A stretch of DNA of 64,000 nt from a bacterium (GCA_037200965.1 JBBCGK010000001.1:768001-832000); one strand, 5' to 3'. Counted from the first letter of the stretch, positions 1-64,000 are shown. A program made the numbers and translations. The notes: a model not told the origin generated them from the letters alone.

Positions 1-3000
1 GGGGGACTCACCATCACCAACACGGGCATCACGTCCGTCACGCCGCAATTCGGTGCGGCCATCAGTAACGGCGGGCTAACCGTCGCGTCCTCGACGGCGG
101 GCACCGACTTTTCGATAACCGGATCGGGAAGCACGATCACGTTCAATCTTCCGACCGCGTCTGCCGCAAACCGCGGCTTGCTTTCCTCCGCCGACTGGAG
201 CGCCTTCAGCGCCAAGCAGGGCGCGCTTACGTTCGCGTATCCGCTCCAGAATAGCGCGAATACCGTATCGCTCGCCTTCGGGACGACGACCGCGAATACC
301 TGGGGACCGGTGCAAACTTTCACGAACGTTCCCGTGCTCGGCACTCTTTCGGGAATCATTTATGGGAATAACGGATCGCTTGCCGCGACCGCCACTTCGA
401 CGCTTGGCGTCGCGCTTGCGGACACTACGGGCTCGCTCCCGGTCGACCGGGGAGGCACCGGATCGACGACGCTCGGCGGCATTTTGAAGGGAAACGGAAC
501 TTCCGGCATCGCGACCGCCGTCCCCGGCATCGATTATCAGCCCGCCGGGAGCTATCTCACCGGCAACCAGACGGTTACGCTTTCGGGCGACGTCTCGGGA
601 AGCGGCGCCACTTCGATCACGACCGCGATCGGGGCGGGGAAGGTGACGAATGCGATGCTCCTGGGCGCTATTGCCGCCGCGAAGCTCATCGGAACCGATA
701 TCACGACCGTCGGGACGATCGTAAGCGGCGTGTGGCAGGGCTCCGTGATCGGATCAGCCTACGGCGGGGCGGGAGCCGTAAGCGGAATACTCAAAGCGAA
801 CGGTTCCGGCAACGTCTCCGCCGCCTCCGCCGGAACCGACTACGTCGCTCCGAACTCCTCGCCCACATTTGCGGGCCTCACGCTCCTAAGCGCGCTTCCC
901 GTCGCAAGCGGCGGGACGGGCTGGAGCGCGATACAGTCCGGCAGCATCCCGTACGGAAACGGTTCCGGTGCCCTCGCGACTACCTCGAGCGGGGCGGCGG
1001 GGAGCGTGCTCGCGCTTGTCGCCGGAGTTCCGGCCTGGGTCGCGACGACCACGTTCTCCACGGGCCTTACGTATACGGCCGGAAGCGTGACCGTGAACAC
1101 CGCACAGAGCATCGCGAAGCTTTCGAACCTGACAAGCAATGGATTCGTCAAAACTATAAACGGCGACGGCACGCTCTCGGTCGATACGAACACCTACCTC
1201 GCCTCCATTGGTCCCGCAGGACAAAGCCAGAGCGGCCCCGCAATTACGATCGCAACTTCGACCGCGGGAACCGACATATCGGTGACGGCTTCCGGCAATA
1301 CGATCACGTTCAACCTCCCGACCGCATCTGCCGCAAACCGCGGCTTGCTTTCCTCGTCCGATTGGACGACATTCAACGGCAAAGTGTCGACCGGCGCGTT
1401 CACATCCTCCGGCCTCACCCTTTCGACCGGTAAGCTTCTCGGAAGAAGTTTGGACGGTACGGGAGCGGCCGAAGAGATAACGGTCGGGAGCGGCCTCTCT
1501 CTTTCTGGCGGGACTCTCTCCGCGTCTGGGAGCGGCATCAGCGCACTTGGTCCTTCGGGACAAACCCAAAGCGGTGCGACGGTCACCATTGCCACCTCGA
1601 CAAGCCTTGCAAACGGCGTCACGTCCGCGCTTGTGGTCGTGGGTTCTTCGAACACGCTTATGTTCACTCCTTCCGTTTCCGGCGTGCTCACGGTTCCTGG
1701 GGGAGGCACCGGTGCCGGTACGCTCACGGGACTCGTTTCGGGAAACGGCACGAACGCTTTCACCGCGACCGCGAACGGCGCAAACGGCCAGGTGCTTGCT
1801 ATGTCCGCCGGAGCGCCGACCTGGGTCGCAACGACCACGTTCTCGACCGGACTTACGTACACGGCGGGCACGGTGACGGTCAACACGGTGCAAAGCGTCA
1901 CGAAGCTTTCGAATCTCGCCACGAACGGATTCGTGAAAACGATCAACGCCGACGGCACGCTCTCGATCGACACCAACACCTATCTCACCTCTGCCCTCAC
2001 CTCAATAGGTCCCGCCGGTCAGGTACAGAACGGCCCGGCTATCGTTATCGCCACCTCGACGACCGCATTTAACGGCATTACGGTGGGCGACACGATAACC
2101 GGTTCGGGGAACACGCTTACGTGGAAGCCCAGCTGGAGCGGTTCGCTCAGCGTCCCTGGCGGCGGCACGGGGGCGACTTCGTTCGGGCAGGGCTGGATAT
2201 TCTCAAGCGGCGGCACGGGTGCCCTTGCTGCCTCGACAAGCCCGACCGTGAACTATCTTATCGCCACCTCGACGACCGCCGCTTCGATCTTCAATTACCG
2301 CGTCGGCATCGGTACGAACGCCCCCGCAACCGCGCTTGACGTGAACGGCGATATCACGATCGAGACCTTGACCTGCAACACATCGCTCGTCGGACTGGGC
2401 ACCGACGCGAACGGCAAGATCTATTGCAAGAGCGTCGTAGGTTCCGATGAGCGGCTTAAGTCGAATATCGAAAGTCTCGGCGACGAAAATGGCCTTGCTC
2501 TCATAGACTCGCTGCGCCCTGTCTCCTATGACTGGAAGGACCCGAACGTGTATGGCGGCATGTCCGGCCTCCAGTACGGGTTCATCGCGCAGCAGGCGCT
2601 TTCTGCCGCGCCGACTCTCGTCGGCACGACGTCGCCGACAGAACTGACGCCCGACGTCACGTACACGTTCAACTATTTCGGCCTCATCGCGCCCCTCGTG
2701 AAAGCGACACAGCAGCTTGACGCGCGGTTCGGCGCGATTGCTTCAACGAGCGCGGATGCGTCTCCGACGTCTTTTGCTCAGGCATTCTTTGGCCGTCTTC
2801 GGGAATGGTTCGCCGACGCGGCAAACGGAATCGAGGACTTCTATGCGAATCGTGTCCATACTTCGCAACTATGCTTAGCAGTCTCCGGCGGGGAAGAGGA
2901 ATGCTTTACGGGCGACGAGCTGAAAGCCCTTAAGGAGAAAGCCGGACAGCATGACAAGGTTCCGCCGCCCGGCATCGGGCCTGTCATCATCGAGGATGTT

Positions 3001-3105
3001 CCGCCGCCGGACACCACTGCCTCATCGTCCGAGCCGGAATCAGAAGCCGCTGCGGCTATGCCAGTGCCTCCCGATCCCGCTACTGACTTACCCGCGCCCG
3101 AGTAA
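1..3105 (+). CDS. Large repetitive surface / tail-fibre-like protein with C-terminal peptidase S74 intramolecular chaperone domain (5' partial; ORF is open from nt 1).
   Basis: The frame is open from position 1; the track M at 178 is a TTG. Gly/Thr/Ser-rich with recurring GGTG motifs and long internal repeats (for example GSGNTITFNLPTASAANRGLLSS.DW at about nt 100 and 1290, and P.WVATTTFSTGLTYTAG.VTVNT at about 1020 and 1810). The C-terminus carries DERLKSNIESL...LRPVSYDWKD...YGFIAQQ, which is the endosialidase / tail-fibre chaperone (S74) signature, followed by a Pro-rich tail. Confidence 0.75.
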   Translation, partial: GGLTITNTGITSVTPQFGAAISNGGLTVASSTAGTDFSITGSGSTITFNLPTASAANRGLLSSADWSAFSAKQGALTFAYPLQNSANTVSLAFGTTTANTWGPVQTFTNVPVLGTLSGIIYGNNGSLAATATSTLGVALADTTGSLPVDRGGTGSTTLGGILKGNGTSGIATAVPGIDYQPAGSYLTGNQTVTLSGDVSGSGATSITTAIGAGKVTNAMLLGAIAAAKLIGTDITTVGTIVSGVWQGSVIGSAYGGAGAVSGILKANGSGNVSAASAGTDYVAPNSSPTFAGLTLLSALPVASGGTGWSAIQSGSIPYGNGSGALATTSSGAAGSVLALVAGVPAWVATTTFSTGLTYTAGSVTVNTAQSIAKLSNLTSNGFVKTINGDGTLSVDTNTYLASIGPAGQSQSGPAITIATSTAGTDISVTASGNTITFNLPTASAANRGLLSSSDWTTFNGKVSTGAFTSSGLTLSTGKLLGRSLDGTGAAEEITVGSGLSLSGGTLSASGSGISALGPSGQTQSGATVTIATSTSLANGVTSALVVVGSSNTLMFTPSVSGVLTVPGGGTGAGTLTGLVSGNGTNAFTATANGANGQVLAMSAGAPTWVATTTFSTGLTYTAGTVTVNTVQSVTKLSNLATNGFVKTINADGTLSIDTNTYLTSALTSIGPAGQVQNGPAIVIATSTTAFNGITVGDTITGSGNTLTWKPSWSGSLSVPGGGTGATSFGQGWIFSSGGTGALAASTSPTVNYLIATSTTAASIFNYRVGIGTNAPATALDVNGDITIETLTCNTSLVGLGTDANGKIYCKSVVGSDERLKSNIESLGDENGLALIDSLRPVSYDWKDPNVYGGMSGLQYGFIAQQALSAAPTLVGTTSPTELTPDVTYTFNYFGLIAPLVKATQQLDARFGAIASTSADASPTSFAQAFFGRLREWFADAANGIEDFYANRVHTSQLCLAVSGGEEECFTGDELKALKEKAGQHDKVPPPGIGPVIIEDVPPPDTTASSSEPESEAAAAMPVPPDPATDLPAPE

Positions 3106-4162
3106 GGGGGCCGAAGTATCCTGCGGCCGGAGCTATACCGTTTGCGACCTGATATTCCGCAAGCGCGGCCTGCGTGACCGGGCCGAAGTATCCCGTCGCT
3201 CCGGCTGCCGCGAGCGCGCGGGCTCCCGGCCCGCTGTTTTTCCCTATGAGAAATGCCTGAAGCGCGGTCACGTCGCTTCCGCGCGCGCCGACGATCAGGT
3301 CGCGATAGAAAGTTGAGGTGGTCACCGCCGTGTTTCCCGCTGCTTCAAGCGCGTCATCGATCGCGGAGGGAAGGTTCATGCCAAGCGCGAGCGCTCCGAG
3401 GAAGGTTCCGCGATAGTTTCGCACGAGCATTTCGGCATCCTCGTCTTCGTCTTCGTCATCGGCATCCTTAAGCGCGTCTTCGACCGCATCGATGCGCTCG
3501 TCGAGCGTGAATTCGCGGGCTAGGCGAGGGAACGGATCGGTCGCCGTCCTTCCGTGGCGTATCTCGAAATGGAGATGGGTTACTCCGCCTTTCGCGTCCC
3601 CGGTGTCTCCCACATACCCGATGAGGTCGCCTTTCTTGAGCACCGAGCCTCTCTTAAGCCCTTCGGCGAATTTGTCGAGATGCATGTACGCGAATGTCTC
3701 GTCCCCGGGATTCGCCGTATAGACATAGTTTCCGGCGCTCGAGCCCGTGCCCATGCTCGTCACCACCGCGTCGGTGGGGGAGACGATGTAGTCGTCCTTG
3801 GGCGCAAGGATGTCCTCGCCCTCGTGCTTGCGCGCCCCGCCGTCGCGCGGGTCGCCGAAGTTCGGCGTGATGTCCACGAGCGAAACGCCAAGCAGCACGG
3901 GTATCGGAAGGTTCTTGACGGGATCGTCGTCAAGCGCGTCGATGGCCTTCTGCGCCGCGGAAGATATGCCGCGGCGGGACGTCGCGCGTTCGATCGTCTC
4001 CTGGCTCGCGCTCCCTTCCGAGGAATTGCGCCAATAGTCGTATGTTCTCGAATACTGCGGCCGTGTCGCCGCCTGTGCGGCCGGCGGGCAAGCGGCCGCG
4101 AAGACGAACGCGCTGATAAAGGAAACGGCAAGCACCGCCCGTGCCCGGTAAGCGTATGTCAT
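3080..4162 (-). CDS. Secreted M23 family metallopeptidase with C-terminal peptidoglycan-binding (PG_binding_1-like) domain.
   Basis: N-terminal signal peptide. HLDKFAEGLKRGSVLKKGDLIGYVGDTGDAKGGVTHLHFEIRHG matches the M23 LytM-type HxH active-site region. The C-terminal ALQAFLIGKN...GYFGPVTQAALAEYQ resembles a PG-binding repeat. The 3' end overlaps the convergent fibre gene by about 26 nt. Confidence 0.8.
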   Translation of the reverse strand: MTYAYRARAVLAVSFISAFVFAAACPPAAQAATRPQYSRTYDYWRNSSEGSASQETIERATSRRGISSAAQKAIDALDDDPVKNLPIPVLLGVSLVDITPNFGDPRDGGARKHEGEDILAPKDDYIVSPTDAVVTSMGTGSSAGNYVYTANPGDETFAYMHLDKFAEGLKRGSVLKKGDLIGYVGDTGDAKGGVTHLHFEIRHGRTATDPFPRLAREFTLDERIDAVEDALKDADDEDEDEDAEMLVRNYRGTFLGALALGMNLPSAIDDALEAAGNTAVTTSTFYRDLIVGARGSDVTALQAFLIGKNSGPGARALAAAGATGYFGPVTQAALAEYQVANGIAPAAGYFGPLTRARVSQ

Positions 4163-4214
4163 GCGCGAAGTATAGCCCGGATCTCCGTGAGATATGCGTG
4201 AAGAAAAGGGGAGC

Positions 4215-4745
4215 TTACCGCAATTTTTTAAATTCCCGGATTATCGGAGTATGCTCGCCTCGCGTTTCAGCACGTTTCAACTGTTGTAATTCGCCTATAT
4301 CGAAGACGCTGTCGAATCCGTCTTCAACCACAGGAGGAGTACGGATAAGCATATTGTGCATGCGCCTGATCGCGTGTTCGGGAACCATAGGTTCACGTAA
4401 ACGATTACGTTCGAGGGCGACCTCCATGGGAACGGCGGCCACCATGCCTTGCACCTTGCTTGCGCCATGTTCGCGGGCGAAGCGAATAAACTCCTTGCGT
4501 TCGAAGTCTTTGGCGAATGTCGCATCGAATACGACCGTCTCCCCGCGCCGCAACGCATCGGCGGTTCTTCGATGTGCTTCTTCCCACACTTCCTTGTTTT
4601 TTGACTGCTCAGTCGCATCGCCAAGCATTTCGAATCGTATATCATCGGGGGAGATGTAGGTATAGGAATTTTCTTCCGCAAAAGGTTTCAGAATTGTCGT
4701 TTTCCCGGAACCGGGAACGCCGATGCCCATAATAAGCTTTGCCAT
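4215..4745 (-). CDS. P-loop NTPase / predicted kinase (AAA_33 or zeta-toxin-like fold).
   Basis: Walker A GIGVPGSGKTT lies close to the N-terminus, with a DxTF-type segment (VFDATF) downstream. I chose the internal ATG at 4745 (MAKLIMGIG...) over the longer track start at 4823. Confidence 0.6.
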   Translation of the reverse strand: MAKLIMGIGVPGSGKTTILKPFAEENSYTYISPDDIRFEMLGDATEQSKNKEVWEEAHRRTADALRRGETVVFDATFAKDFERKEFIRFAREHGASKVQGMVAAVPMEVALERNRLREPMVPEHAIRRMHNMLIRTPPVVEDGFDSVFDIGELQQLKRAETRGEHTPIIREFKKLR

Positions 4746-4960
4746 GTTCTTAAGTATACCTGTGGTCAAAGTCTTATCCCCACGCGAATCATAGGAGGCC
4801 GCGCGCCTGCGGCTATACTTCAAGTACCACGGTGTTGCGCACCGAGTCTCTCCGGACCCGAAAGGGAGTGGTCCGCGTCATGCGCACCCAAACGCTCAAG
4901 CGATTCAGTCTTTATAAACATATCTCCGCGAAGCGGGGCTAACTTCATATATACCGGCGT

Positions 4961-5500
4961 ATGCGCCGCACTCGTCCTATGGCAGCTAAGAATGAAAAGA
5001 TGGATATAGATGTCTCCGAGCCAGTGCCCGAAGCGCCGTGGCCTCCGGCCGCGCCGGGACCAAGGAACGGGCGCAGGATGCGGCGCGGATGGTCCAAGAT
5101 TCTCGCCGCGCTCATCCTGGTCCTCGTCCTCGCCGCGCTTGCGTACTATTTTGTGCAATACCAGCGCCTCAGCCGCGACCCGGCGGTGGTCGCGCGGGCC
5201 GAAGACGCGAAAGTCATACAGGAACTTTCGAAGGTGATGGTGGTCCCGAACGATCCGAGCCCCGTCATTGCGACCGTGTCCGACAAAAGCAAGCTTGCCG
5301 ACCAGCCTTTCTTCGCGCAGGCGCAAAACGGCGACCAGGTCATCATCTTCCCGGTTTCGATGAAAGCCGTGCTCTATCGTCCGTCGGCCCGAAAAATAAT
5401 CGACATCGCGCCGCTTGCAACCGGTGCCTCGGCGTCTGCCGCCGCCCCGTCTCCCGTACCCGCAAAGGCGAAGGCGGCCGCGACGAGCACGACTCCTTAA
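4961..5500 (+). CDS. Hypothetical membrane-anchored protein (single TM, Ala/Pro-rich tail).
   Basis: Hydrophobic segment ILAALILVLVLAALAYYF and a low-complexity C-terminus. No recognisable domain. Codon bias is consistent with the neighbouring genes. Confidence 0.4.
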   Translation: MRRTRPMAAKNEKMDIDVSEPVPEAPWPPAAPGPRNGRRMRRGWSKILAALILVLVLAALAYYFVQYQRLSRDPAVVARAEDAKVIQELSKVMVVPNDPSPVIATVSDKSKLADQPFFAQAQNGDQVIIFPVSMKAVLYRPSARKIIDIAPLATGASASAAAPSPVPAKAKAAATSTTP

Positions 5501-5504
5501 ACGC

Positions 5505-6689
5505 ATGAATATCCGACTCGGCACCATTTCGCTCGTCGCACTCATTTTCTTTTCCTTCGCGCTTCCCGCGTTCGCGTCGGAAACATCCGGAACGGTGCTC
5601 GATTCGCAGAAGTTCGGATGGGGCGACAAGATCGGGTGGATCAATTTCGCACCGACCGACGGCTCCGAGTACGTCGGCCTCGTGATCACCGACAGCGCGG
5701 TGACGGGCTTCGCGTGGAGCAGGGATTTCGGATGGATACGGTTCGATCCGCCGAATTCCGGACAGGGGGTTACGAACACGCCGGAAGGCGTTCTTGGCGG
5801 TTCCGCATGGGTCGCGTCGCTCGGATGGATATCGATGGAGGGCGTAACGATAAATCAAAACGGCGAGTTCACGGGCATCGCCGGAGTCGCTGGCACCGAT
5901 ACCGCGCGTATTTCCTTCGATTGCTCGCGGTGCGGCGTGCAGACTGACTGGCGCCCGGCATCCGTGCGAGGCGGCGGCGGAAACAACGGGGGAGGCAGCG
6001 GCAACAACGGGCGTTCCGGCAGTTCCGTTCCGGACGCATCCTCGCCAGAACCCTCCTCAAGCGGTGGCGGGATCGGTATCGTGCCGTTCTTTCAGAACTT
6101 ATTTACGGGCATCTTCGGCGCAGCTCCCGGGACGAACGCCGGTACCGCTGGCGCGGCGGGCGCTGCCGTTCCGAACAGCCTGTTCGACATTTCGCTCGCG
6201 CTTGAAAAGAGCGTCGTGCCCGCAGGCGAGCCGCTCGTCGCGCTCGTCTCGTTCGCGAACTTCGGAAAGGTTACTACCGCGGCCGACCTCGCCTTCTCCA
6301 TCGTCAACGGCGAGGGAACCGTATTCGCGACATCGACCGCGCGCACGAGCGTCGAAACCGAGAACCTCGTGCGGCAGACGTTTGCTACGACGGCATTCTC
6401 TCCCGGAACGTACTGGATAAAGCTCAGGGTCACGTACGGTTCGCCCGTCATCACCGAAGACTTCAACCAGCAGTTCACAATCACGGCCGCGCAGACGTTC
6501 GCCGGGCGGTGCGGGTTCCCGTGGCCGCTGTCGTATGCCGTGGATCACATCGCGTTCCTCGCCTGGTTCGGCTGTGTATTCCCGTGGATCATCATTATCG
6601 TCACGATACTGATGATCGTCGCTCTCTTCTATTATCTTGTTCATCCGCGTGGAAAGGACCGGCATGCGGCCCGCGCTTTCTCCCGATGA
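5505..6689 (+). CDS. Secreted protein with three GW(I)xF-type repeats, a Gly/Asn-rich linker, a CARDB-like beta-sandwich region and a C-terminal TM anchor.
   Basis: Signal peptide MNIRLGTISLVALIFFSFALPAFA. Repeats GWGDKIGWINFAP, GFAWSRDFGWIRFDP and SAWVASLGWISMEG. C-terminal hydrophobic stretch FPWIIIIVTILMIVALFYYLV. The stop overlaps the next start (ATGA). Confidence 0.55.
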   Translation: MNIRLGTISLVALIFFSFALPAFASETSGTVLDSQKFGWGDKIGWINFAPTDGSEYVGLVITDSAVTGFAWSRDFGWIRFDPPNSGQGVTNTPEGVLGGSAWVASLGWISMEGVTINQNGEFTGIAGVAGTDTARISFDCSRCGVQTDWRPASVRGGGGNNGGGSGNNGRSGSSVPDASSPEPSSSGGGIGIVPFFQNLFTGIFGAAPGTNAGTAGAAGAAVPNSLFDISLALEKSVVPAGEPLVALVSFANFGKVTTAADLAFSIVNGEGTVFATSTARTSVETENLVRQTFATTAFSPGTYWIKLRVTYGSPVITEDFNQQFTITAAQTFAGRCGFPWPLSYAVDHIAFLAWFGCVFPWIIIIVTILMIVALFYYLVHPRGKDRHAARAFSR

Positions 6690-7693
6690 AGTACCTGCGC
6701 ATCACGATAACGGCAGGACTTCTGTTTCGCGGTCTTGCGCTCCTGCTCGTCATTCTCGCGGTCTCGCTTACGATCCACGAGTGGGCGCTCATGGCCGAGC
6801 GGGACCACCTGTACCAAGCGGCCGCGAACGAAGCCCTCGATGAGCGGCTCGAGTCTGTCGGCGACGGGCTCACGGAGGTTTTCGCGAGCGCTCGTGAAGG
6901 GCTCCGGTCGCTTTCGTCCGTACTCGCGGTCTATTCGGGAGTATCTGACGGCCGCGCGGGCGCCGAACAGGCGCTCCGCATCGCGCGGGACGCCCACCCC
7001 GAGTATTATTTCGTTCGTTATATAGGCGCGGACGGGTCCGCGTTCGTCACGCTTTCGCCGCCCGGCATGTCGGTGGGGGACGAGACGGTATTCGATGCCG
7101 GATTCGACGGCCTCCTGCAGGACGCGCAAAATTCAATCACCGGGGACATTCTCGTGTCGGGGCTCTCGTGGTATCCCGTCATCGGCGGCACGAAGATTCC
7201 GCTCGTGTATGCAATTACGCCGGTTGTGGCGGCAGGGAAAACGTACGGATATCTCGAAGTGGCGCTTGATATACGCAACTCGTTCACGGCGGTGACGCAG
7301 GCGCAGCGCGCCGAAGACGTCCTGTTCCTTCTGGATAGCGAAGGGAAATACCTTGTCGCGCCGCACGGTACGCCAGTTCCGGAAGATACGGTCACGAGCC
7401 GGTATCCAAAAGAGGTGGTTGACCACCTGTACGGGCCGGACACAGTCGGTGCCTTCACGTACGGCGATCGGGTCTTCGCGTATGAGCACTTGCGGACGAC
7501 CGGCGTCGGCATGCGGTCGGGTGATCCCGAATTTTGGGTGCTCGTCAGCGTGTCCGATACCCGCTCCGTCTTCAGCGCGGCGCGGCGCGCGAGAAACGAA
7601 TCGGTCTTTTCCCTGGCCGTGTTCCTTCTGCTTGCGGGTCTCGCCGGCCTCTTGGTGTACCGCCTGCGCATGATGCTGCACACTCATCTATGA
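6686..7693 (+). CDS. Membrane protein with a periplasmic Cache-like sensor domain between two TM helices and no output domain.
   Basis: N-terminal TM (LALLLVILAVSL) and C-terminal TM (VFSLAVFLLLAGLAGLLVY). The roughly 280-aa extracytoplasmic region has a double-Cache-like pattern of alternating predicted strand and helix. The start overlaps the previous stop (ATGA). Confidence 0.5.
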   Translation: MKYLRITITAGLLFRGLALLLVILAVSLTIHEWALMAERDHLYQAAANEALDERLESVGDGLTEVFASAREGLRSLSSVLAVYSGVSDGRAGAEQALRIARDAHPEYYFVRYIGADGSAFVTLSPPGMSVGDETVFDAGFDGLLQDAQNSITGDILVSGLSWYPVIGGTKIPLVYAITPVVAAGKTYGYLEVALDIRNSFTAVTQAQRAEDVLFLLDSEGKYLVAPHGTPVPEDTVTSRYPKEVVDHLYGPDTVGAFTYGDRVFAYEHLRTTGVGMRSGDPEFWVLVSVSDTRSVFSAARRARNESVFSLAVFLLLAGLAGLLVYRLRMMLHTHL

Positions 7694-8187
7694 AGCGGAT
7701 CCTGAAGCTGTCGGCGGGCCTGGGTGCGGTCCTGCTGTGCGCGGGTATCGTTCCAGCATCCGTACATGCGGCGAGCGTGGCGCTTTCCATCCCCGACCGG
7801 TACGCGCAAGTGGATCCCGACGACCGTTTTTACTACCAGCTTAACGTCCTGTATCCGGAAAACGTCCAGCGGAGGGACCTCACCGTCACTTACCGCGTCG
7901 AGGAGGGGCAGGCGACGATCGTCAGCGGCCAGTACCTGCGGGCAGTCGAGACGCAGGCATCCTTCTCCGATTACATCGTCATTCCGACCGACGCCCGGGA
8001 AGGCCTCCATACGATAGAGATCGCGGTCACCGACGGCGACAAGCCGCTCGCGCAGGTGAGCGGAAGCTTCCAGGTCAATCCGCAGGAAGACTGGGTCATG
8101 ATCTACTTCTCGATACTTCTTGCCGCCGTGCTGCTGGTCGGCGTCGGCCTGTTCGTCGAGATCCTTATCGTGTCCCGCCGCGCATGA
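7690..8187 (+). CDS. Small secreted protein: signal peptide + CARDB-like beta-sandwich + C-terminal TM anchor.
   Basis: Start MKRILKLSAGLGAVLLCAGIVPASVHA (signal peptide), found at the 53rd codon of the track ORF. C-terminal hydrophobic WVMIYFSILLAAVLLVGVGLFVEILIV. ATGA overlap with the upstream gene. Confidence 0.5.
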   Translation: MKRILKLSAGLGAVLLCAGIVPASVHAASVALSIPDRYAQVDPDDRFYYQLNVLYPENVQRRDLTVTYRVEEGQATIVSGQYLRAVETQASFSDYIVIPTDAREGLHTIEIAVTDGDKPLAQVSGSFQVNPQEDWVMIYFSILLAAVLLVGVGLFVEILIVSRRA

Positions 8188-8291
8188 CTTGTCCACACCG
8201 CGAATGCTTGAACGGGACAGGTGCTGCTAGACTCAAGAGTGTTCCGGTGTTGCGCACCGCATCTGTCCCGGGGACGATTAATTCTCGTCTC

Positions 8292-11282
8292 ATGCGCACC
8301 ATCTTCACCTCTCCTTTGCTAGCGTTCGCGGGACGCTTCACCGCGGTTTTCTTTTTCGTATTTGCAGCAAACGGTATCGTCGGTTTTCCCGCCGCGCATG
8401 CGGCATGGGACGGTAATCCGTACGAGCCCGAGGAAACACTCGATCCGGAATGCTCGCCGAATCAGGGGCAGTGCCGTATCACGCAGCCCGTCAGCGCCGG
8501 AGAGAGCGTACCGGCAGGCTCGCTTCTCTATACCGACGGTACGGATTCATGGACGACGCTTCCCATCGGCAGCGACGGCAAGGTGCTCAAGATAAGCGGC
8601 GGTTCGGTCGTCTGGGGAGACGATAACGGCGGCATCTCGTACAGCGCATCCGAACAGGGGCTGCACCTTGATGCGGGCACGCACGTGCTCTCTATCACGC
8701 TTGACGGCTCGACGCTCTCCGCGTCCGGAAGCGGACTCCGGCTTGCGGCCGCCTATCCCGGTCAGGCATCCATTACGACGCTCGGTACCATTACGACCGG
8801 CACGTGGCATGGTTCCGCAGTAGCTCCGGCCTATGGCGGTACGGGCGCGTCGTCAGCTCCCGCAAACGGCCAGCTTCTCATCGGCAACGGATCGACGTAT
8901 ACGGTCGCGAACGCGAGCGGCTCGGGCGGCATACAAATCACGAACGGTTCGGGATCGCTTGGCATCGGCCTTTCCATAAGCGGATTGTCGGCAGTCTCAA
9001 GCGCCGCGAACGGCGATTATCTCGCGCTCTACGATGACAGCGCGGGGGCGAACAGGAAGATCAGCATCAGCGACCTGTTCGCGAACGTTATCGGCTCTCT
9101 TAATTTCCAAGGCACGTGGGATGCGGATGCGAACAGCCCGTCCCTTTCCGACGGCATGTGCACGGCAAGCGAAAACGGATACTTCTATATCGTCGGCACG
9201 TCCGGAGCGACGACTCTGGGCGGCGTGTCCTCATGGGACGTGGGCGACTGGCTTATCTGCGACGGCACGGGCTGGGGCAAGGTCGCGGATACGAGCGCCA
9301 TCGCGAGTGTGTTCGGGCGCACCGGCGCGGTCACTGCTCAGAGCGGGGACTATACCGGCGACCAGATCATCAATGTCGCGGCGGGCACGATCGCCTCGAC
9401 GAACGTGCAGGGCGCCATTAACGAGCTCGCAAGCGAGAAAGAAGCGGCGATAGCGTCGGGCCTTACGACCCAGTACTGGCGCGGCGACAAGACGTGGCAG
9501 ACCTTGAATACGCTCGCGGTGGCCGAGAATCCCGCCCACCTCTATTACACCGACGCCCGCGCGAGAAACGCGTTTTCTTCGGGCAGTGCATCGCTTTCGT
9601 ACGATTCCTCGACCGGCGTCATCGCCGTTACGGGCGGATACAGCATTCCGGAATCGGGGACCATCGAAGGGGATACGCTCGTCTGGGACGGATCGAACTG
9701 GGTTCCGACCGAGGGCGCGATGTCGTTCTCTTTGTCCACCGGCCTTCTCTCGATCGATGGCACCGCCTCGTCTACCGACCTTTATATCGCGGATGATGCC
9801 ATCATAGCCTCCGCCGATATCGGATCGCTTTCCGCCGATTCGCTCTCGCTTTCCGCCGCCCTTGGCGCAGGGTCAGGCGGTACCGGCATCACGAGTCCTG
9901 TCTCGGCCGGAATTCTTATCGGTACGCAGGGAGGCGGAGCGTGGCAGCAGGTCGCGACCTCGACGCTCCGCATCGCGCTTGCCGATACGACCGGAACCCT
10001 TTCGGTCGTCAAGGGCGGTCTTGGTCTCACTGCCGCGCCTTCGTTCGGGAATCTCCTCATGGGTAACGGTTCGGGCGGCTATACTTCGGTCGCGACTTCT
10101 TCGCTCGGCCTTACGTTCTCTTCGATCGCGGGGACGCTCGGGGTTTCCGCGGGAGGAACCGGCGTAGTTTCCGCGCCTTCATTCGGGGAGCTCCTGCTTG
10201 GAAACGGCTCAGGAGGATATGCGCTCGCCGCCACCTCGACTCTCGGTCTCAATCTCTCCTCGCTTACCGGAACCCTTGGCGTCGCCGCAGGCGGTACCGG
10301 AGCGGCGAGTCTTGGCCAAGGATGGCTCTATTCGACCGGCGGCGGCATCGCGCTCTCCGCGTCCACGTCGCCGACCGTGAACTACCTTCTCGCCACCTCG
10401 ACGACGCAAGCATCCGCGATTGCCTACCGTCTCGGCGTCGGGAGTACGACGCCGCTTGCGACCCTTGCGGTTAAGGGTGCGGGAACCGGCGCGGGCGTCA
10501 CGCTTCAGACGACCGACAGCGCCGACATCGCGGGCCTTACGGTTCTCGACAAGGGATTCGTCGGCATAGGCACGACATCTCCGGTGGCTGCGCTTGCGGT
10601 GAGCGCGGCGGCCGGCGTCGCGCCGTTCGCGGTGGGTTCGTCGACGGGGGGAATCAAGCTCACCGTCGCCGCGAACGGCTTCGTCGGCGTCGGCACCTCA
10701 AGCCCTACGTATCCGCTCGACGTGCGGGGAGATGTCGGCGGAACGGTCGCGCGTTTCCAGACTACGACAAATTCGCTCTTCTGCCTCCTCTCCTCGATTA
10801 CCGGGCTTTTGAGTTGCGCATCGGACGAGCGGCTCAAGAAGGACATTACGCCGCTTGACGCGTCGACGCTCGACCAGGTCCTCGCGCTCAAGCCGGTTTC
10901 GTACCACTGGAAGACCGATGATTCTTCCGCCGGACTCAAGTATGGATTCATCGCGCAGGATGTCGAGAAGATATTTCCCGAACTCGTTTCCGCCGATCCC
11001 ACCACCGGCTACAAGTCCCTTTCCACCGGCGGCATGATGCCATACGTCGTGAAAGCTCTTCAAGAGCAGCAAGTCGAAATCGAGGATCTCAAGGCGCAGA
11101 TAGCGGTGCTTGCCGCTCATCTTCCGCATGTGTCCGGAGATGACGAAACTCCCGCACCGGTTCCTCCTTCCGGGCCCGAAGAGGAGGAAGGAAGCGTGAC
11201 CCCTCCTGTTCCTGAGGAGGAAGTTCCGGCTCCCGTACCGCCGACCGTGAATACTGACGATGCTCCGGTCGCAACTCCGTAG
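8292..11282 (+). CDS. Large repetitive surface / tail-fibre-like protein with C-terminal peptidase S74 intramolecular chaperone domain (complete, about 996 aa).
   Basis: Signal-peptide-like N-terminus (AVFFFVFAANGIVGFPAAHAA). GGTG-rich repeats, including about three tandem 31-aa repeats (GLGLTAAPSFGNLLMGNGSGGY...). C-terminal DERLKKDITPLD...LKPVSYHWK...YGFIAQDVEKIFPELV matches the S74 chaperone signature, followed by a Pro/Glu-rich tail. The N-terminal AAHAAWDGNPYEPEETLDPECSPNQGQC motif is shared with the gene starting at 63474. Confidence 0.75.
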   Translation: MRTIFTSPLLAFAGRFTAVFFFVFAANGIVGFPAAHAAWDGNPYEPEETLDPECSPNQGQCRITQPVSAGESVPAGSLLYTDGTDSWTTLPIGSDGKVLKISGGSVVWGDDNGGISYSASEQGLHLDAGTHVLSITLDGSTLSASGSGLRLAAAYPGQASITTLGTITTGTWHGSAVAPAYGGTGASSAPANGQLLIGNGSTYTVANASGSGGIQITNGSGSLGIGLSISGLSAVSSAANGDYLALYDDSAGANRKISISDLFANVIGSLNFQGTWDADANSPSLSDGMCTASENGYFYIVGTSGATTLGGVSSWDVGDWLICDGTGWGKVADTSAIASVFGRTGAVTAQSGDYTGDQIINVAAGTIASTNVQGAINELASEKEAAIASGLTTQYWRGDKTWQTLNTLAVAENPAHLYYTDARARNAFSSGSASLSYDSSTGVIAVTGGYSIPESGTIEGDTLVWDGSNWVPTEGAMSFSLSTGLLSIDGTASSTDLYIADDAIIASADIGSLSADSLSLSAALGAGSGGTGITSPVSAGILIGTQGGGAWQQVATSTLRIALADTTGTLSVVKGGLGLTAAPSFGNLLMGNGSGGYTSVATSSLGLTFSSIAGTLGVSAGGTGVVSAPSFGELLLGNGSGGYALAATSTLGLNLSSLTGTLGVAAGGTGAASLGQGWLYSTGGGIALSASTSPTVNYLLATSTTQASAIAYRLGVGSTTPLATLAVKGAGTGAGVTLQTTDSADIAGLTVLDKGFVGIGTTSPVAALAVSAAAGVAPFAVGSSTGGIKLTVAANGFVGVGTSSPTYPLDVRGDVGGTVARFQTTTNSLFCLLSSITGLLSCASDERLKKDITPLDASTLDQVLALKPVSYHWKTDDSSAGLKYGFIAQDVEKIFPELVSADPTTGYKSLSTGGMMPYVVKALQEQQVEIEDLKAQIAVLAAHLPHVSGDDETPAPVPPSGPEEEEGSVTPPVPEEEVPAPVPPTVNTDDAPVATP

Positions 11283-11318
11283 CAGGTCTTGGTTTGGGAG
11301 CAGCGCGCCACGCTATTC

Positions 11319-12122
11319 ATGAGATTGTCGTTCCCCATTCGTTTTTTGTTTGTTCTGCTCGCAGCGGCAGTCCTGTCGGGGCTGTCGGTTCCTATGGAGC
11401 GGGCTTTTGGCGCGAACCAGGAAGACGGTATCCGGGCGACAGCCGCGAGCCTCGTATCCCGCGTGGCGCCCGGCGGGACGCTCTCGTTCTCGCTCACGCT
11501 TCTTAACTTCGGCACGGCGCGCCGGGCCGATGTCGTCATCACATACCGGATACTCGATGCGGCGGGCGCCGAAGCCTATTCGCAGCAGGAGACCGTCGCG
11601 GTCGACACGACCGCGAGCGTTGTGCGGCACGTGGAAGTGCCGGGGACCCTCGCGCCCGGACGCTATACGCTCGAAAGCGAAGCGCGCTATCCCTTTCAGG
11701 AAGCGCCCGCCGTCTCCCGCTTCTCGTTCACCGTCGAGCGCGCGTATCTGGGCGTCTATATCACGGACTGGCTCCGATACGGCGGCCTCGCCCTTCTTCT
11801 GGCGCTCGCGTCGTTTATCGGCGGCCGGCTCCTCATCCGGGCCAGGGCCCGCCGCGCCGTGCTCCATGACTACGCGGACAAGCCCAAAGACGAACGCATC
11901 TATTACGAAATCATAAGCGACACCGTAAGCCAGATGCGCCAGCGGGCGGGCGACCGGGCGCTTGAGATCGCGGCGAAAACGAAGGGTCTTTCCATCGATT
12001 CCGATACCGGCAAAGTTCTCAAAATCACGGAGAACCCCGCGCAAGTCGTCGCGGCGCTCGTGTCCGGGTACGAAGCGGCGCTCGGGAAGAAGGTGAGCTT
12101 CGCGCTCAGAAAGAACGGCTGA
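11319..12122 (+). CDS. Secreted/anchored protein: signal peptide + CARDB-like beta-sandwich + TM + cytoplasmic tail.
   Basis: MRLSFPIRFLFVLLAAAVLSG signal peptide (ATG at 11319; the track begins at a TTG at 11289). A TM helix (GGLALLLALASFIGGRLLI) follows the beta-rich domain. Same architecture as 7690..8187. Confidence 0.5.
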   Translation: MRLSFPIRFLFVLLAAAVLSGLSVPMERAFGANQEDGIRATAASLVSRVAPGGTLSFSLTLLNFGTARRADVVITYRILDAAGAEAYSQQETVAVDTTASVVRHVEVPGTLAPGRYTLESEARYPFQEAPAVSRFSFTVERAYLGVYITDWLRYGGLALLLALASFIGGRLLIRARARRAVLHDYADKPKDERIYYEIISDTVSQMRQRAGDRALEIAAKTKGLSIDSDTGKVLKITENPAQVVAALVSGYEAALGKKVSFALRKNG

Positions 12123-12140
12123 TCACGTAATCCATATTCT

Positions 12141-12524
12141 ATGAACCAAAAAACCATACTCATCGTCGAAGACGAAAAAGATATCAGGGAAGCGCTTCGG
12201 GACATGCTCGCCGACAAGGGATACCGCGTCCTTGAGGCCGGAAACGGGCGGGAAGGCGCGGCAAGCGCTCTTGCCGAGCACCCCGACCTCATCCTTCTCG
12301 ATCTCCTCATGCCCGAAGTGGATGGCATGACAGCGCTCGGACAGATCCGGGAGGATTCGTGGGGGAAGGGCGCATCCGTCATGATCCTCACGAACGTGAA
12401 CGCGAGCAGCGAACAGGTCGTCAAGGATATCGTGACGCACAAGCCGCTTGAATACCTCATCAAGTCGGACTGGAAGATCGCCGATGTCCTGAGGAAAGTC
12501 GAGCGGGTGCTCGCGGGGAAGTAG
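12141..12524 (+). CDS. Single-domain response regulator (CheY-like receiver).
   Basis: ILIVEDE...DLILLDLLMP...MILT matches the REC domain acidic pocket and phospho-acceptor Asp pattern. At 127 aa there is no output domain. Confidence 0.8.
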   Translation: MNQKTILIVEDEKDIREALRDMLADKGYRVLEAGNGREGAASALAEHPDLILLDLLMPEVDGMTALGQIREDSWGKGASVMILTNVNASSEQVVKDIVTHKPLEYLIKSDWKIADVLRKVERVLAGK

Positions 12525-12631: not shown

Positions 12632-13096
12632 CTATTGATAGTCCGACGCCGTGCGTTGAGGATTCGAGAGCGCCGCGACGCCAAGCGCTACGATCGCGAG
12701 GAGCACGATGAGGGAGAGCCAGAGGAGCGGGGAAGAGAAGTCCCAGAAAGATACCGGAACATTCGCCGCGTTCGTGGTTTCCGGTATCGTCGCGTCGTTC
12801 GTGTATTCGATGACGGCCGGGGCCGCTGCCGCAGGGGCGGTCGTGTCTATCGCTCCTGGAGCCGGATAATCCTCTGCCGCAGTGTCGGCCGCTACGACGT
12901 TTCCGGTCGCGCCGTAATCGGCCGTGAGAGCCCCTCCCGCGCCGGTCGCGAGCCCCTGCGTGTATGCGTATCCCGTCTCATATCCGGTCGTGTCCGCAGC
13001 CGCGGGGCTCGCGAAGAGCAGCCCGCTTACCGCGAGAAGGCCAAGCGCGCTTATCGCCGCGCCGCTTCCGACTGCTATGCGTTTGACTGCTTGCAT
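12632..13096 (-). CDS. Hypothetical secreted low-complexity protein with C-terminal TM anchor.
   Basis: Start taken at MQAVKRIAVGSGAAISALGLLAVSGLLFASPAAA (signal peptide). Ala/Thr/Gly-rich middle region. C-terminal hydrophobic LLWLSLIVLLAIVALGVAAL. Confidence 0.4.
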   Translation of the reverse strand: MQAVKRIAVGSGAAISALGLLAVSGLLFASPAAADTTGYETGYAYTQGLATGAGGALTADYGATGNVVAADTAAEDYPAPGAIDTTAPAAAAPAVIEYTNDATIPETTNAANVPVSFWDFSSPLLWLSLIVLLAIVALGVAALSNPQRTASDYQ

Positions 13097-14388: not shown

Positions 14389-14461
14389 GCGAACGAAGGA
14401 TAGCACGATCACTCAACTCCAAAGCGGACCCTTGAAAACTTCGCGTATGGATGAGTGTTCA

Positions 14462-15514: not shown

Positions 15515-15609
15515 ATTTGTAGTATACGCCCTGCATATCTGTTTGTATTGCTTTCGAAATGAATTCCGGATGAGGACGTAGTATTAGTCATACGATTCAC
15601 CCGTTCTTC

Positions 15610-33242: not shown

Positions 33243-33398
33243 ATTTGAACTCTAAGCCTCCAGCCTTCAATATGAATGACGGAAAGCTTCAAACGGTTTT
33301 AAAAGGCGGTGCATCAAGGCAGGACTGAAAAGTCTCTAAAAGAAAACTTTAACGTGCACAACCTCCTCGAAAGAGGACGGAAAAGTAAGGGCAAGGCA

Positions 33399-35291: not shown

Positions 35292-35293
35292 CT

Positions 35294-37924: not shown

Positions 37925-38169
37925 ACTTCTATGGAGTCTTTATCGGGATAGACAGATACGCCTCTCCAAGTATCAACATGTTCGTGGACGAAGTGGCGGC
38001 AAACCGGAAGCTCGACACCGACAAGGTTGCGGCGCTCGCTGATGGCCGCACCTACGTTGGCACGGATGCCGTGAGCAACGGGCTGATTGACGGCATCGGC
38101 AGCATCCCCGAAGCGTCCGACTATCTCACTCAACAGATTGGTGAGCAGGCGTCTGTGTGTTGGTACTAA
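37921..38169 (+). pseudogene. Possible 3' remnant of a signal peptide peptidase A (S49, sppA) gene.
   Basis: ADGRTYVGTDAVSNGLIDGIGSIPEASDYL resembles the SppA C-terminal G-R-V-W-T-G..A...GL-V-D..G motif. Only 82 codons, beginning exactly at the res stop. Confidence 0.3.
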
Positions 38170-63403: not shown

Positions 63404-63473
63404 GGATTCCGTTGTCCACACGTTTTATCGCTTCTTTATCTGCATTTTAAGAGCGGTTCAATGGCGTATGCAT

Positions 63474-64000
63474 ATGGTTCCAAGGAACCATATTGCCGTG
63501 GCCATAACTACTTCGCTAAAGACCGGTTTCCTCCTCCTCGTCCTTGCAGGGTTGCTGGTTGCGGGCACGGCGGCGCACGCGGCTCCGCGCGTCTCTCCGT
63601 ACGGACCGGGCGAAACGCTCGCGCCCGACTGCCTTCCGGGCGAGGCGAACTGCAGCGTGCACGTGTCGACGAGCGATATCGCCGAAGGGGCGAATGCTTA
63701 TTACAGCGACGCGCGCGTGCTCTCGTATCTCGATTCTCTCGACGCCAGCCGGTTCTTTTCGACGACCTCGGCCGAGTACCTCCTTTCGCAGGGCGGCAGC
63801 GCCTCGTTCTCAAATGCGAGCATCACGAATGCCACGACGACGAACCTGTTTGCTTCGAACCTGACGCTTGGCACGCTCACGGGGTTTCTGAGGGCGACTG
63901 CGGGGGTGGTTGCGACGGCGCTCGTGAACCTGGCGTCGGACGTAACGGGCATATTGCCGATCGCAAACGGCGGCACGGGCAATCCGGCGGGCGGAACAAC
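63474..64000 (+). CDS. Third large surface / fibre-like protein paralog (N-terminal part; continues beyond the window).
   Basis: Signal peptide (LKTGFLLLVLAGLLVAGTAAHAAP). AAHAAPRVSPYGPGETLAPDCLPGEANCSV is paralogous to AAHAAWDGNPYEPEETLDPECSPNQGQCRI of 8292..11282, followed by LPIANGGTG-type repeats. The frame is open to the window end. Confidence 0.6.
   Translation, partial: MVPRNHIAVAITTSLKTGFLLLVLAGLLVAGTAAHAAPRVSPYGPGETLAPDCLPGEANCSVHVSTSDIAEGANAYYSDARVLSYLDSLDASRFFSTTSAEYLLSQGGSASFSNASITNATTTNLFASNLTLGTLTGFLRATAGVVATALVNLASDVTGILPIANGGTGNPAGGT

Follow-up and report, generated by a model that had tools for sequence, protein, structure and literature searches.

Exported tail-fibre-like proteins beside a GW-barrel membrane protein on the chromosome of a probable member of the Patescibacteria

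Results and discussion

The window, a stretch of 64 kb analysed over its whole length, carries three genes for phage-tail-fibre-like proteins with a Peptidase_S74 domain, among genes of a cellular genome (Table 1). Fibre genes of this kind are accompanied, throughout the Patescibacteria, by genes for uncharacterised membrane proteins. With moderate confidence, we favour the reading that these chromosomal genes of a probable patescibacterium encode Sec-exported surface fibres which derive from phage tail fibres, are held at the membrane and bind another cell.

Table 1 Positions of the genes, domains and DNA elements in the window.
Feature	Position (nt)	Strand	Description
Fibre 1	1..3105	+	5' end cut; 1034 aa visible
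Fibre 1, S74 domain	2443-2622		PF13884 at aa 815-874, E 3.3e-14, 53.3 bits
M23 peptidase	3080..4162	-	Secreted, with PG_binding_1; Pfam M23 E 3e-18, PG_binding_1 E 7e-7
Kinase-like P-loop protein	4215..4748	-	AAA_33 type; Pfam AAA_33 E 2e-23; gene call of 176 aa
DNA element, copy 1	4808..4845	+	Upstream of p173; TATACT box, then CGGTGTTGCGCACCG
p173	4979..5500	+	Cytoplasmic N-terminus, one TM helix at aa 41-59 (TM scan)
p394	5505..6689	+	Signal peptide, GW barrel, linker, beta-sandwich, C-terminal TM helix
p394, GW-repeat domain	5568-5972		Modelled as one barrel
p394, beta-sandwich	6177-6494		Ig-like/CARDB-like
p394/p335 overlap	6686-6689		ATGA
p335	6686..7693	+	dCache_1-like extracytoplasmic domain between two TM helices (12-30, 306-324)
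p335/p165 overlap	7690-7693		ATGA
p165	7690..8187	+	Signal peptide, beta-sandwich, C-terminal TM helix (TM scan)
DNA element, copy 2	8223..8260	+	Upstream of fibre 2; TAGACT box, then CGGTGTTGCGCACCG
Fibre 2	8292..11282	+	996 aa
Fibre 2, N-terminal Cys motif	8403-8480		WDGNPYEPEETLDPECSPNQGQC
Fibre 2, S74 domain	10821-10988		PF13884 at aa 844-899, E 1.3e-19, 70.7 bits
p267	11319..12122	+	Signal peptide, beta-sandwich, TM helix at aa 155-173, conserved cytoplasmic domain of about 90 aa
CheY-like receiver	12141..12524	+	Stand-alone; Pfam Response_reg (PF00072) E 1.5e-19, 70.6 bits (cut-off 30.2)
Fibre 3	63468..64000	+	5' part in window; signal peptide, N-terminal Cys motif (public gene calls, locus L008)
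Fibre 3, S74 domain			PF13884 at aa 485-544, E 2.7e-16, 60 bits

Fibre proteins

The gene boundaries agreed with the gene calls on the public contigs. A sequence-only reading of the window had placed the third fibre gene at 63474; the gene is there, with its start two codons earlier. It extends past the window end and encodes 666 aa in full. Fibres 1 and 2 contained 14% Gly, 10–14% Thr and 12% Ser. The shaft of fibre 1 was Gly/Thr/Ser/Ala-rich with large internal duplications, and that of fibre 2 showed a 46-aa GGTG periodicity.

The S74 domain that the sequence-only reading had recognized in these large Gly/Thr/Ser-rich proteins was recovered by profile search in all three, well above the PF13884 gathering cut-off of 22 bits. 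The Ser/Lys dyad (S-x-x-x-x-K) was intact in each fibre, as SDERLK in fibre 1 (aa 815) and fibre 2 (aa 844) and as SDKRLK in fibre 3. The motif of fibre 2 aligned with SDERLK of PDB 8jov and SDRRIK of 6f45. By inspection of the sequences, about 37 of 39 patescibacterial fibres retained the Ser...Lys spacing. Trimerisation and self-cleavage of the window's fibres would be expected by homology. The proteins were first thought to end at the S74 motif; about 150–220 residues follow it. This C-terminal part, about 150–260 residues counted past the catalytic Ser, includes a Pro/Glu-rich tail, preceded in fibre 2 by a coiled-coil-like stretch. No TM helix was found C-terminal to S74 by TM scan and sequence inspection.

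At the other end, fibre 2 has a signal peptide (aa 1–37, site ..AHA/AW). A hydrophobic N-terminal segment followed by an A-x-A site was common to fibres 2 and 3 and to 44 fibre N-termini of other loci. Directly after the signal peptide comes the motif Y-x-PGETL-x-P-x-C-x-P-x-D-x-x-C. The three fibres are paralogous, as proposed before, only in this motif and the S74 region; the shafts differ.

Fibre 2 shared 60% identity with the fibre of locus L019 over the N-terminal half, and the C-terminal halves diverged, a combination known from tail fibres. The C-terminal region of fibre 1 was 44% identical to the fibre of L014, which sits before p173, GW, Cache and p165 genes. Fibre 2 also matched PHROG tail-fibre families, for example phrog_1980 over aa 558–943. 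Such matches of the fibres reached E 3.6e-22, and the homology went past the S74 domain. They indicate shared ancestry and are not proof of virion membership.

Conserved membrane-protein partners

The gene for p173 belongs to the cluster, although the sequence-only reading missed it. The extracytoplasmic domain of p173 (about 70–95 aa) is conserved, with the motif ATVxDKxKL..QPFF.NA.NGD...IYP...KA.LYRPS..KII..AP. No relative of p173 was found in Pfam, NCBIfam, PHROG or PDB. Homologues adjoin fibres in L012, L013, L014 and L019, and were present in 23 of the 80 patescibacterial loci.

For p394, taken initially for a secreted GW-repeat protein, the signal peptide and the GW repeats were borne out. 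Rather than an array, the repeats are predicted to make up a single 8-stranded beta-barrel, which was modelled confidently. After it come a disordered Gly/Ser/Pro linker of 66 aa (aa 157–222), the beta-sandwich, and a C-terminal TM helix (aa 357–375) with a short basic tail. With this helix p394 is membrane-anchored, not simply secreted, and its topology as a whole fits an anchor. The sandwich model (aa 225–330, pLDDT about 90) matched CARDB 3idu (E 1e-5, TMt 0.61–0.68), and also RbmA and TRAP-beta. A CARDB or DUF11 domain had been suspected here; the fold resemblance of p394 stands, and no Pfam model, that of CARDB included, matched p394, p165 or p267. The GW-barrel family comprised 5,548 clusters, almost entirely patescibacterial, and has no Pfam or NCBIfam model.

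Fibre and GW genes across the Patescibacteria

We found the GW domain in >560 reference-genome loci, nearly all labelled Patescibacteria. This family distribution makes a patescibacterium (CPR) the probable source organism. Relatives carry cytochrome oxidase and haem-synthesis genes, which are unusual for CPR.

The loci were surveyed with custom-built fibre HMMs. In 51 of 79 loci, the GW gene had a neighbouring fibre ORF in the same orientation, and no adjacent fibre was detected in the other 28. The density of fibre ORFs was 0.234 per kb within 1.6 kb of the GW gene versus 0.008 per kb beyond 4 kb, an about 30-fold difference. Locus L010 had three tandem fibres and no GW gene within 8 kb.

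The phylum-wide conserved unit is fibre, then p173, then GW-barrel membrane protein. It replaces the order of anchor, Cache and fibre suggested earlier, in which the Cache gene, like p165, proved to be clade-specific. The arrangement occurs twice at this locus: as fibre 1, an insertion, p173 and p394, and as fibre 3 and p250. The latter gene lies directly 3' of fibre 3 in the source contig and encodes a GW barrel and a TM helix; p250 matched p394 (blastp 2e-20), and the custom HMMs agreed on the barrel. By conserved gene order, fibre 1, which lies upstream, has as good a claim to p173 and p394 as fibre 2 has.

The adjacency shows a functional link between these proteins and the fibre, not its kind. 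It fits equally a role of the GW-barrel protein and p173 in assembly, export or maturation, much as tail-fibre assembly proteins have in phages, and the two could also be merely co-regulated envelope proteins, the fibre being retained otherwise or released. We assign this alternative a limited but appreciable probability. In its favour, many small barrels like the GW domain bind ligands (hemophilin, HpuA, TbpB), and GW domains elsewhere are fused to unrelated modules (PG_binding_1, dockerin, CarboxypepD_reg, TspO). The likeness to Slam-type surface lipoprotein/haemophore barrels (hemophilin, HpuA, TbpB, NHBA) is at the fold level only, with 7–15% identity. The GW-barrel protein differs in that it has no lipobox, its barrel is N-terminal and its tether is a C-terminal TM helix; nor can a haem or ligand site be assigned to it. 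Against an assembly factor, the S74 domain already provides the folding function, and the display of the GW domain at the end of a long linker, with a TM helix at the C-terminus, is more in keeping with a tether than with a chaperone. The invariant fibre N-terminus, moreover, implies one common binding partner. Anchoring of the fibre by the GW-barrel protein and p173 is the reading that we prefer.

Clade-specific genes

This clade alone has added the Cache-like p335, p165, p267 and the receiver. For p335, dCache_1 (PF02743) gave E 5e-4 and 20.1 bits, versus a cut-off of 45, with an alignment over model positions 7–239 of 240. Five of the six members of its family matched dCache_1 (best E 3.8e-10), and the family profile matched the PctA ligand-binding domain (E 4.7e-5). 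The protein stops 11 residues past TM2, with no cytoplasmic output domain. It has the two-TM plan read from the sequence, with a domain that is Cache-like, and may serve in sensing. In dCache_1 sensors (chemoreceptors and histidine kinases, e.g., PctA), as in p335, two TM helices flank a periplasmic domain, which in p335 is dCache-like. Unlike these sensors, p335 has no cytoplasmic signalling domain, and its gene is translationally coupled to genes for beta-sandwich/TM proteins.

Two small proteins with signal peptide, beta-sandwich and TM helix had been described, and both have this plan, p267 with the cytoplasmic domain in addition. The p165 family is rare, with only 9 clusters among 5.8 billion proteins, and its gene was always 3' of the Cache-like gene in the loci examined. 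In L018, Cache and p165 were found without any fibre gene on a contig of 10.9 kb. The custom p165 HMM matched p267 at E 3.3e-7, marking the two as weak paralogues; their link to the p394-type sandwich is by weak sequence similarity only. The cytoplasmic tail of the p267 type was fused to a GW barrel and sandwich in P0148, and in L037 a gene with such a tail was located after the GW gene. The lone CheY-like receiver was likewise recognized correctly before. A receiver gene 35% identical to it lies near the L014 cluster too.

With respect to translational coupling, two ATGA overlaps were verified (Table 1). A third (8184–8187) requires a long fibre 2 start, and the public gene calls start at 8292. 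A DNA element precedes both p173 and fibre 2, consisting of a TATACT or TAGACT box and an invariant inverted repeat. Its exact 14-mer had two occurrences in the window. Homologues of p173 and fibre 2 have the element upstream as well, in L012, L014, L019 (twice) and L020, and an Rfam search gave no match. It is a putative shared promoter or operator, and suggests co-regulation of two transcription units.

Comparison with known fibre systems

The closest characterised analogue of the window's fibres is the family of mosaic adhesive trimeric (MAT) fibres of Bdellovibrio bacteriovorus. For their S74 subgroup, e.g., Bd3182, self-cleavage and surface location are proven (PMC10769870). Both kinds of fibre are cellular, have a signal peptide with a conserved element directly after it, and occur as several paralogues per genome. 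They share a long shaft of the trimeric-fibre type with loops of the type V-G-x-G-T-x-x-P-x-x-x-L, distal parts that are mosaic and variable and, for the S74 subgroup, a C-terminal S74 with SDxxxK; other MAT fibres bear an alternative tip instead. They differ in phylum and envelope type. As described, the N-terminal elements differ too: the one common to all MAT fibres is a beta-rich domain of about 130 aa (PMC10769870), and that of the window's fibres is a short Cys-pair motif. Past the catalytic Ser, the long C-terminal part with its Pro/Glu-rich tail also distinguishes the window's fibres. The N-terminus of MAT fibres is presumed to attach to some element of the cell surface, which PMC10769870 does not name; the window's fibres have conserved genomic partners (p173 and the GW-barrel protein), a set that the paper does not mention.

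Phage tail fibres and tailspikes (K1F endosialidase, T5 pb1, PDB 8jov, 6f45) have S74, its Ser/Lys dyad and shaft modules in common with the window's fibres, and in both the N-terminal end, which serves for attachment, is conserved while the distal end varies. In contrast to them, the window's fibres have a Sec signal peptide, no nearby virion genes, and an N-terminal motif that none of the examined viral relatives has. Where phage fibres have a baseplate, these have membrane-protein partners. Another non-viral S74 protein that trimerises and self-cleaves is MYRF, a eukaryotic membrane-bound transcription factor with S74/ICA (as cited in PMC10769870). In MYRF the membrane anchor is C-terminal to S74 and the transcription factor is released, whereas in the window's fibres no TM helix follows S74.

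The fibres might instead be structural components of an envelope or matrix (an S-layer-like coat, cell-cell or biofilm fibres), not adhesins for host recognition. The presence of several paralogues in a genome, at times in tandem arrays, would agree with this, as would the fact that no lectin or toxin tip domain was recognized in the window's fibres by Pfam search. We think it unlikely: conserved N-terminal halves joined to mosaic, fast-diverging distal halves are typical of receptor-binding proteins, and the same architecture serves prey recognition in the Bdellovibrio analogue (PMC10769870).

The M23 peptidase raises the idea of an attack device, in which released fibres target other cells together with this peptidoglycan hydrolase, secreted, equipped with PG_binding_1 and located between fibre 1 and p173. 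The M23 and kinase genes are an insertion outside the conserved cassette, missing at the matching position in the syntenic L014 and L019. Since the M23 gene is also on the opposite strand, it does not count among the system's conserved components, and the fibres carry no toxin domain; we judge this idea very improbable.

A cellular or a viral context

The window and the 8 kb past its 3' end hold housekeeping, tRNA and transport genes, and in neither was there a gene for a capsid, terminase, portal, tail tube, sheath or baseplate. Homologues in five other genomes were also among housekeeping genes, with no phage structural gene around them. Internal fibre modules recurred in viral contigs. None of the 80 viral loci sharing such modules had the Cys motif, a GW domain, p173, p165 or the Cache protein, and the GW domain had no relative in IMG/VR. 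As the sequence-only reading had maintained, these are probably cellular genes and not a prophage, forming a cell-surface attachment apparatus. Prophage remnants, or fibres belonging to a tailocin or contractile injection system whose other genes lie elsewhere in the genome, could account for the PHROG and S74 matches, the modules shared with viral contigs and an rve transposase plus restriction-modification island at 33–43 kb, but they are a very improbable explanation, given the lack of phage structural genes in all these loci, and the N-terminal motif and partner genes that are missing from the viral contigs. The fibres also have Sec signal peptides, and those of virions and tailocins are assembled in the cytoplasm.

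Proposed mechanism and significance

We propose that, once exported, the fibre loses its signal peptide, which would expose the conserved N-terminal disulfide-type motif. The S74 domain would act as an intramolecular chaperone driving trimerisation, and then cut itself at the conserved Ser of S-D-E-R-L-K, releasing the chaperone and the Pro/Glu-rich tail. The invariant N-terminus may be held near the cell by the neighbour-encoded p173 and GW-barrel protein, the latter with an anchor plan of barrel, long flexible linker, an Ig-like domain in some cases, and C-terminal TM helix. The mosaic, variable distal part would serve in adhesion by binding a ligand on a second cell, for which the host of an episymbiont is the most plausible candidate. 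In this clade, the co-translated Cache-like two-TM protein with p165, together with p267 and the receiver, could form a putative sensing or regulatory layer.

More tentatively, and as a possibility that we would not yet favour, this may be an undescribed surface-fibre apparatus of the whole Patescibacteria. A domesticated tail fibre with an invariant disulfide motif would plug into a purpose-built GW-barrel anchor, usually with p173, and would be a principal determinant of host-cell choice by the episymbiont; the window's clade would have wired it to a Cache-type sensor.

To our knowledge, host recognition and attachment by ultra-small CPR/Patescibacteria are little understood beyond type IV pili. 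The locus is a concrete and widely conserved candidate for this attachment, with exported tail-fibre-like proteins whose distal ends are swappable. It also brings forward a family of partner domains, about 5,500 clusters in size, for which there is no curated model. As for what holds MAT-like fibres on the cell, the GW-barrel protein and p173 offer a candidate answer.

Gene organization of the fibre cluster

Gene boundaries were taken from gene calls on public contigs with identical proteins. The ATGA overlaps claimed between neighbouring genes were present at 6686 and 7690, but the one at 8184 exists only with an upstream start of fibre 2 not chosen by gene callers. An M23 peptidase and a kinase-like gene separated fibre 1 from p173 and lay on the opposite strand, the 3' end of the peptidase gene overlapping that of fibre 1 by 26 nt. 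This pair was missing from the syntenic loci L014 and L019. It is an insertion specific to the window genome, because the gene orders of the closest relatives (L019, L014 and L012) lack it.

The gene directly after the receiver encoded an Ala/Thr-rich protein of 154 aa that had no family match. This protein combined a signal peptide with a C-terminal TM helix, and its position was kept in the identical contigs. Just downstream of the cluster (13222-16374) were a FAD-binding monooxygenase-like, a GH18 chitinase-like and a Peptidase_A4 gene, functions unusual for a reduced genome. The gene directly upstream of fibre 3 encoded 276 aa, in which a GIY-YIG nuclease domain was recognized (E 4e-5). 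In L012 and L014, which come from close relatives of the window organism, a cytochrome oxidase operon of the ubiquinol-oxidase type adjoined the fibre cluster (L012 6474-12994, L014 1-2293). Its genes were COX2 with COX_ARM, COX1, COX3, COX4_pro and UbiA, and L012 also had the haem-synthesis genes HemC, HemD and a Chlor_dismutase/HemQ-like gene.

Table. Features of the fibre cluster and of the conserved upstream DNA element (window positions unless a locus is named).
Feature	Position	Strand	Remarks
Fibre 1	1-3105	+	cut at 5' end
M23 peptidase with PG_binding_1	3080-4162	-	secreted
AAA_33 kinase-like protein	4215-4748	-	
DNA element, first copy	4808-4845		CGGTGTTGCGCACCG; upstream of p173
p173	4979-5500		
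p394	5505-6689		
p335	6686-7693		
p165	7690-8187		
DNA element, second copy	8223-8260		CGGTGTTGCGCACCG; upstream of fibre 2
Fibre 2	8292-11282		996 aa
p267	11319-12122		
Receiver	12141-12524		
Ala/Thr-rich protein	12632-13096	-	
GH18 chitinase-like gene	14462-15514	-	
Peptidase_A4 gene	15610-16374		
GIY-YIG protein	62573-63403		
Fibre 3	from 63468		666 aa in full; p250 (250 aa) next, outside window
Element core in relatives	L012 1746-1758; L014 7136-7148; L019 1479-1491, 4922-4934; L020 9356-9368		CGGTGTTGCGCACC

A conserved unit of fibre, p173 and GW protein

The N-terminal half of the membrane protein p394, here called the GW domain, recurred as the N-terminal half of p250, which is encoded after fibre 3 (blastp 2e-20). 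It had no match in Pfam or NCBIfam. In a scan of one genome per species we found it in >560 loci, nearly all in patescibacterial-labelled MAGs (Patescibacteria, Paceibacterota, Kaiser-, Adler-, Nomura-, Magasanik-, Staskawicz- and Shapirobacteria). From the distribution of these families, the window organism is itself probably patescibacterial. When 1.84 billion cluster representatives were searched with a profile of the GW domain, 5,548 relatives were found at E <= 1e-3. Among the 150 best of these 5,548 that were listed, most had the domain starting <=~40 residues from the N-terminus, which is consistent with a place directly after a signal peptide. Many reference MAGs with GW/fibre cassettes (L026, L027, L029, L046, L080 and others) carried the labels Gammaproteobacteria, Alphaproteobacteria, Acidobacteriaceae or Saccharibacteria, and one of them was a single 1.09 Mb contig. 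These labels look unreliable, and for several GTDB records with GW loci under the first three names we suspect mislabelling.

Custom HMMs for the S74 region, the fibre N-terminal motif, p173, p165, the Cache-like protein, the p267 tail and the GW domain were run on six-frame ORFs of 80 loci, the best-scoring subset of the >560. A same-strand fibre ORF directly adjoined the GW gene in 51 of the 79 evaluable loci (upstream in 37, downstream in 13), and p173 separated the two genes in 11 of the loci with the fibre upstream; about a third of the GW loci had no adjacent fibre. With the same loci serving as their own control, fibre ORFs numbered 0.234 per kb out to 1.6 kb from the GW gene, compared with 0.008 per kb beyond 4 kb.

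The sequence-only reading had proposed checking whether relatives keep the order of anchor, Cache and fibre genes. L019 had fibre, p173, p394, Cache-like, p165 and fibre exactly as in the window, L014 had fibre, p173, p394, dCache and p165 with a receiver nearby, and L012 had Cache-like, p165, fibre and p173. Among the GW loci, Cache was found in only 2/80, p165 in 3/80 and the p267 tail in 1/80. Given this rarity and the adjacency counts, what is shared across the phylum is fibre, (p173), GW protein. The window holds this unit twice, as fibre 1 with p173-p394 and as fibre 3-p250. The observation behind the sequence-only reading was borne out, and its interpretation in part, the conserved unit being refined to fibre, p173 and GW protein.

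In another genome (L010, 8001-17559; 37% GC), three S74 fibre genes (1024, 1010 and 1120 aa) stood in tandem, with fmt/def on one side and a ribosome hibernation factor gene on the other. Their surroundings, out to 8 kb, held no gene for a GW protein, p173 or Cache.

Fibre proteins

All three fibres had a Peptidase_S74 domain well above the Pfam threshold. The S-D-x-x-x-K dyad was kept in each and aligned with the same motif in chaperone domains of phage tail fibres whose structures are solved (8jov and 6f45). Fibres 1 and 2 were rich in Gly (14%), Thr (10-14%) and Ser (12%), as described from the sequence, and the predicted signal peptides and TM helices were supported by a simple hydropathy scan. 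The proposed paralogy held at the two ends but not elsewhere: BLAST linked the fibres through the S74 region (35-48% identity) and a 30-residue N-terminal stretch. DNA tandem repeats were rejected as the origin of the repetitive proteins, with just one trivial 21-bp array found; the repeats are at the protein level.

Directly after the signal peptide, 44 fibre ORFs from across the phylum had the motif Y-x-PGETL(N/D)P-x-C-x-P(T/G)D-x-x-C, which the custom HMMs also recognized in fibres 2 and 3. The N-terminal half of fibre 2 was ~60% identical to its relatives, while their C-terminal halves had diverged, as is usual in fibres whose attachment end is fixed and whose binding end can be exchanged. 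Just before the S74 domain of fibre 2 (aa 787-826; 10650-10770) there was a repeated G-F-V-G-(I/V)-G-T-x-x-P-x-x-x-L-x-V motif. It weakly matched PDB 8ojn, a "Cell wall surface anchor family protein" (E 0.005), and resembled the capping-loop consensus reported for MYRF and for the mosaic adhesive trimeric (MAT) fibres of Bdellovibrio bacteriovorus.

Accessory proteins

None of the accessory proteins had a match in NCBIfam or PHROGs, and p173, p394, p165, p267 and p250 had none in Pfam. In the p394 model, a disordered Gly/Ser/Pro linker (residues 157-222) lay between two confidently predicted domains, and a TM helix came last. Against the PDB, the full-length model gave only generic Ig-like matches, which masked the N-terminal domain, and this was modelled separately. 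In this model the "GW repeats" formed one closed 8-stranded barrel, not the beta-trefoil or choline-binding-type hairpin solenoid that had been expected. The C-terminal domain was an Ig-like sandwich in the model, with CARDB 3idu, RbmA and TRAP-beta as the nearest solved folds. The suggested CARDB relationship thus held for p394 at the fold level only, and not in Pfam for p394, p165 or p267.

The proteins p394, p250, p165 and p267 appear to be modular variants of one design, because a fusion protein of 435 aa (P0148, alignment A1) joins the GW barrel, the sandwich, a TM helix and a p267-type cytoplasmic tail. In L037 the order was fibre-p173-GW-p267, with a p267-like gene after the GW gene. 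For p173 we found one TM helix and a conserved ectodomain of ~70-95 aa, with no relative in Pfam, NCBIfam, PHROGs or PDB, the PDB profile search giving TM-helix noise only. One p173 homologue had an extra LytR_C domain.

The Cache-like p335 scored 20.1 bits against Pfam dCache_1 (threshold 45), in an alignment spanning almost the whole model. Five of the six members of its family matched dCache_1 (best E 3.8e-10), and the family profile matched the ligand-binding domain of PctA. In line with the "Cache-only" description, the protein stops just after the second TM helix and so has no output domain. Among 5.8 billion proteins, p165 was very rare, forming only 9 clusters. In a 29% GC organism (L018, 1-8196), its homologue was the last, overlapping gene of an operon with an ABC substrate-binding protein, two dCache_1 proteins and two solute-binding proteins. 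Because no fibre gene was found on this 10.9 kb contig, the Cache/p165 pair is a separable module, independent of fibres.

Upstream DNA element

A conserved DNA element preceded both p173 and fibre 2. It consisted of a TATACT-like box and then an invariant CGGTGTTGCGCACC(G/A), the latter containing the inverted repeat CGGTG-N5-CACCG. The core was also found upstream of p173/fibre 2 homologues in four other genomes, twice in L019, although these proteins were just 45-60% identical. The element matched no Rfam family, and a known RNA was rejected; two covarying pairs and a positive covariation term came from three sequences, too few for a structure. A role as promoter or operator common to both genes is possible, and would define two co-regulated units.

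Genomic context and phages

A prophage or tailocin was rejected on the signal peptides of the fibres and on the gene content of the window, the 8 kb past its 3' end and five homologous loci, where there were no phage structural genes; the sequence-only reading had likewise argued against a prophage. No capsid, terminase, portal or tail family was among the Pfam families listed for the called window genes or for the fibre-homologue neighbourhoods in five other genomes. Otherwise, the window together with the 8 kb past its 3' end encoded CTP synthase, FtsX, NDK, fructose-bisphosphate aldolase, RF-1, ABC transporters, PAS histidine kinases, five tRNAs, a restriction-modification pair and one rve transposase.

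Viral contigs had in common with fibre 2 internal modules only, mainly residues ~360-455 and the S74 region. Of 80 viral loci sharing such modules, 22 carried the S74 domain and none the N-terminal Cys motif, the GW domain, p173, p165 or the Cache protein. The GW domain also had no match when 2.9 million viral contigs were scanned with it directly.

A low-GC stretch (0.47-0.55) at 33309-43268 held the restriction-modification pair (an N6_N4 methyltransferase and a DEAD/ResIII/RE_endonuc protein), together with DUF2726 and the rve-family transposase (42225-43268). It is probably a horizontally acquired island.

Relation to known fibres and proposed mechanism

Among characterised systems, the MAT fibres of Bdellovibrio (e.g., Bd3182) come closest. 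In these, a signal peptide and a conserved N-terminal domain are combined with mosaic tips, and 13 of 21 end in an S74 domain with SDxxxK; they are located at the cell surface, and self-cleavage was shown by experiment (PMC10769870). According to the same authors, the surface element that binds the N-terminus awaits identification (PMC10769870). The MAT paper names neither Patescibacteria nor partner genes, whereas the fibres here have a partner cassette. Full-text literature searches of a limited collection found no description of such fibres in Patescibacteria. Cellular S74 fibres are thus already known, and the phylum-wide partner cassette appears undescribed.

In the best-supported model, the fibre would be exported by Sec, with removal of its signal peptide, and the S74 domain would drive trimerisation, followed by self-cleavage. 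These steps follow from the sequence features and from what is established for S74 domains. The further steps are inferred from the neighbouring genes, from topology and by analogy: the adjacent membrane proteins would retain the invariant N-terminal end of the fibre, the variable distal end may bind another cell, and sensing would be a clade-specific add-on.
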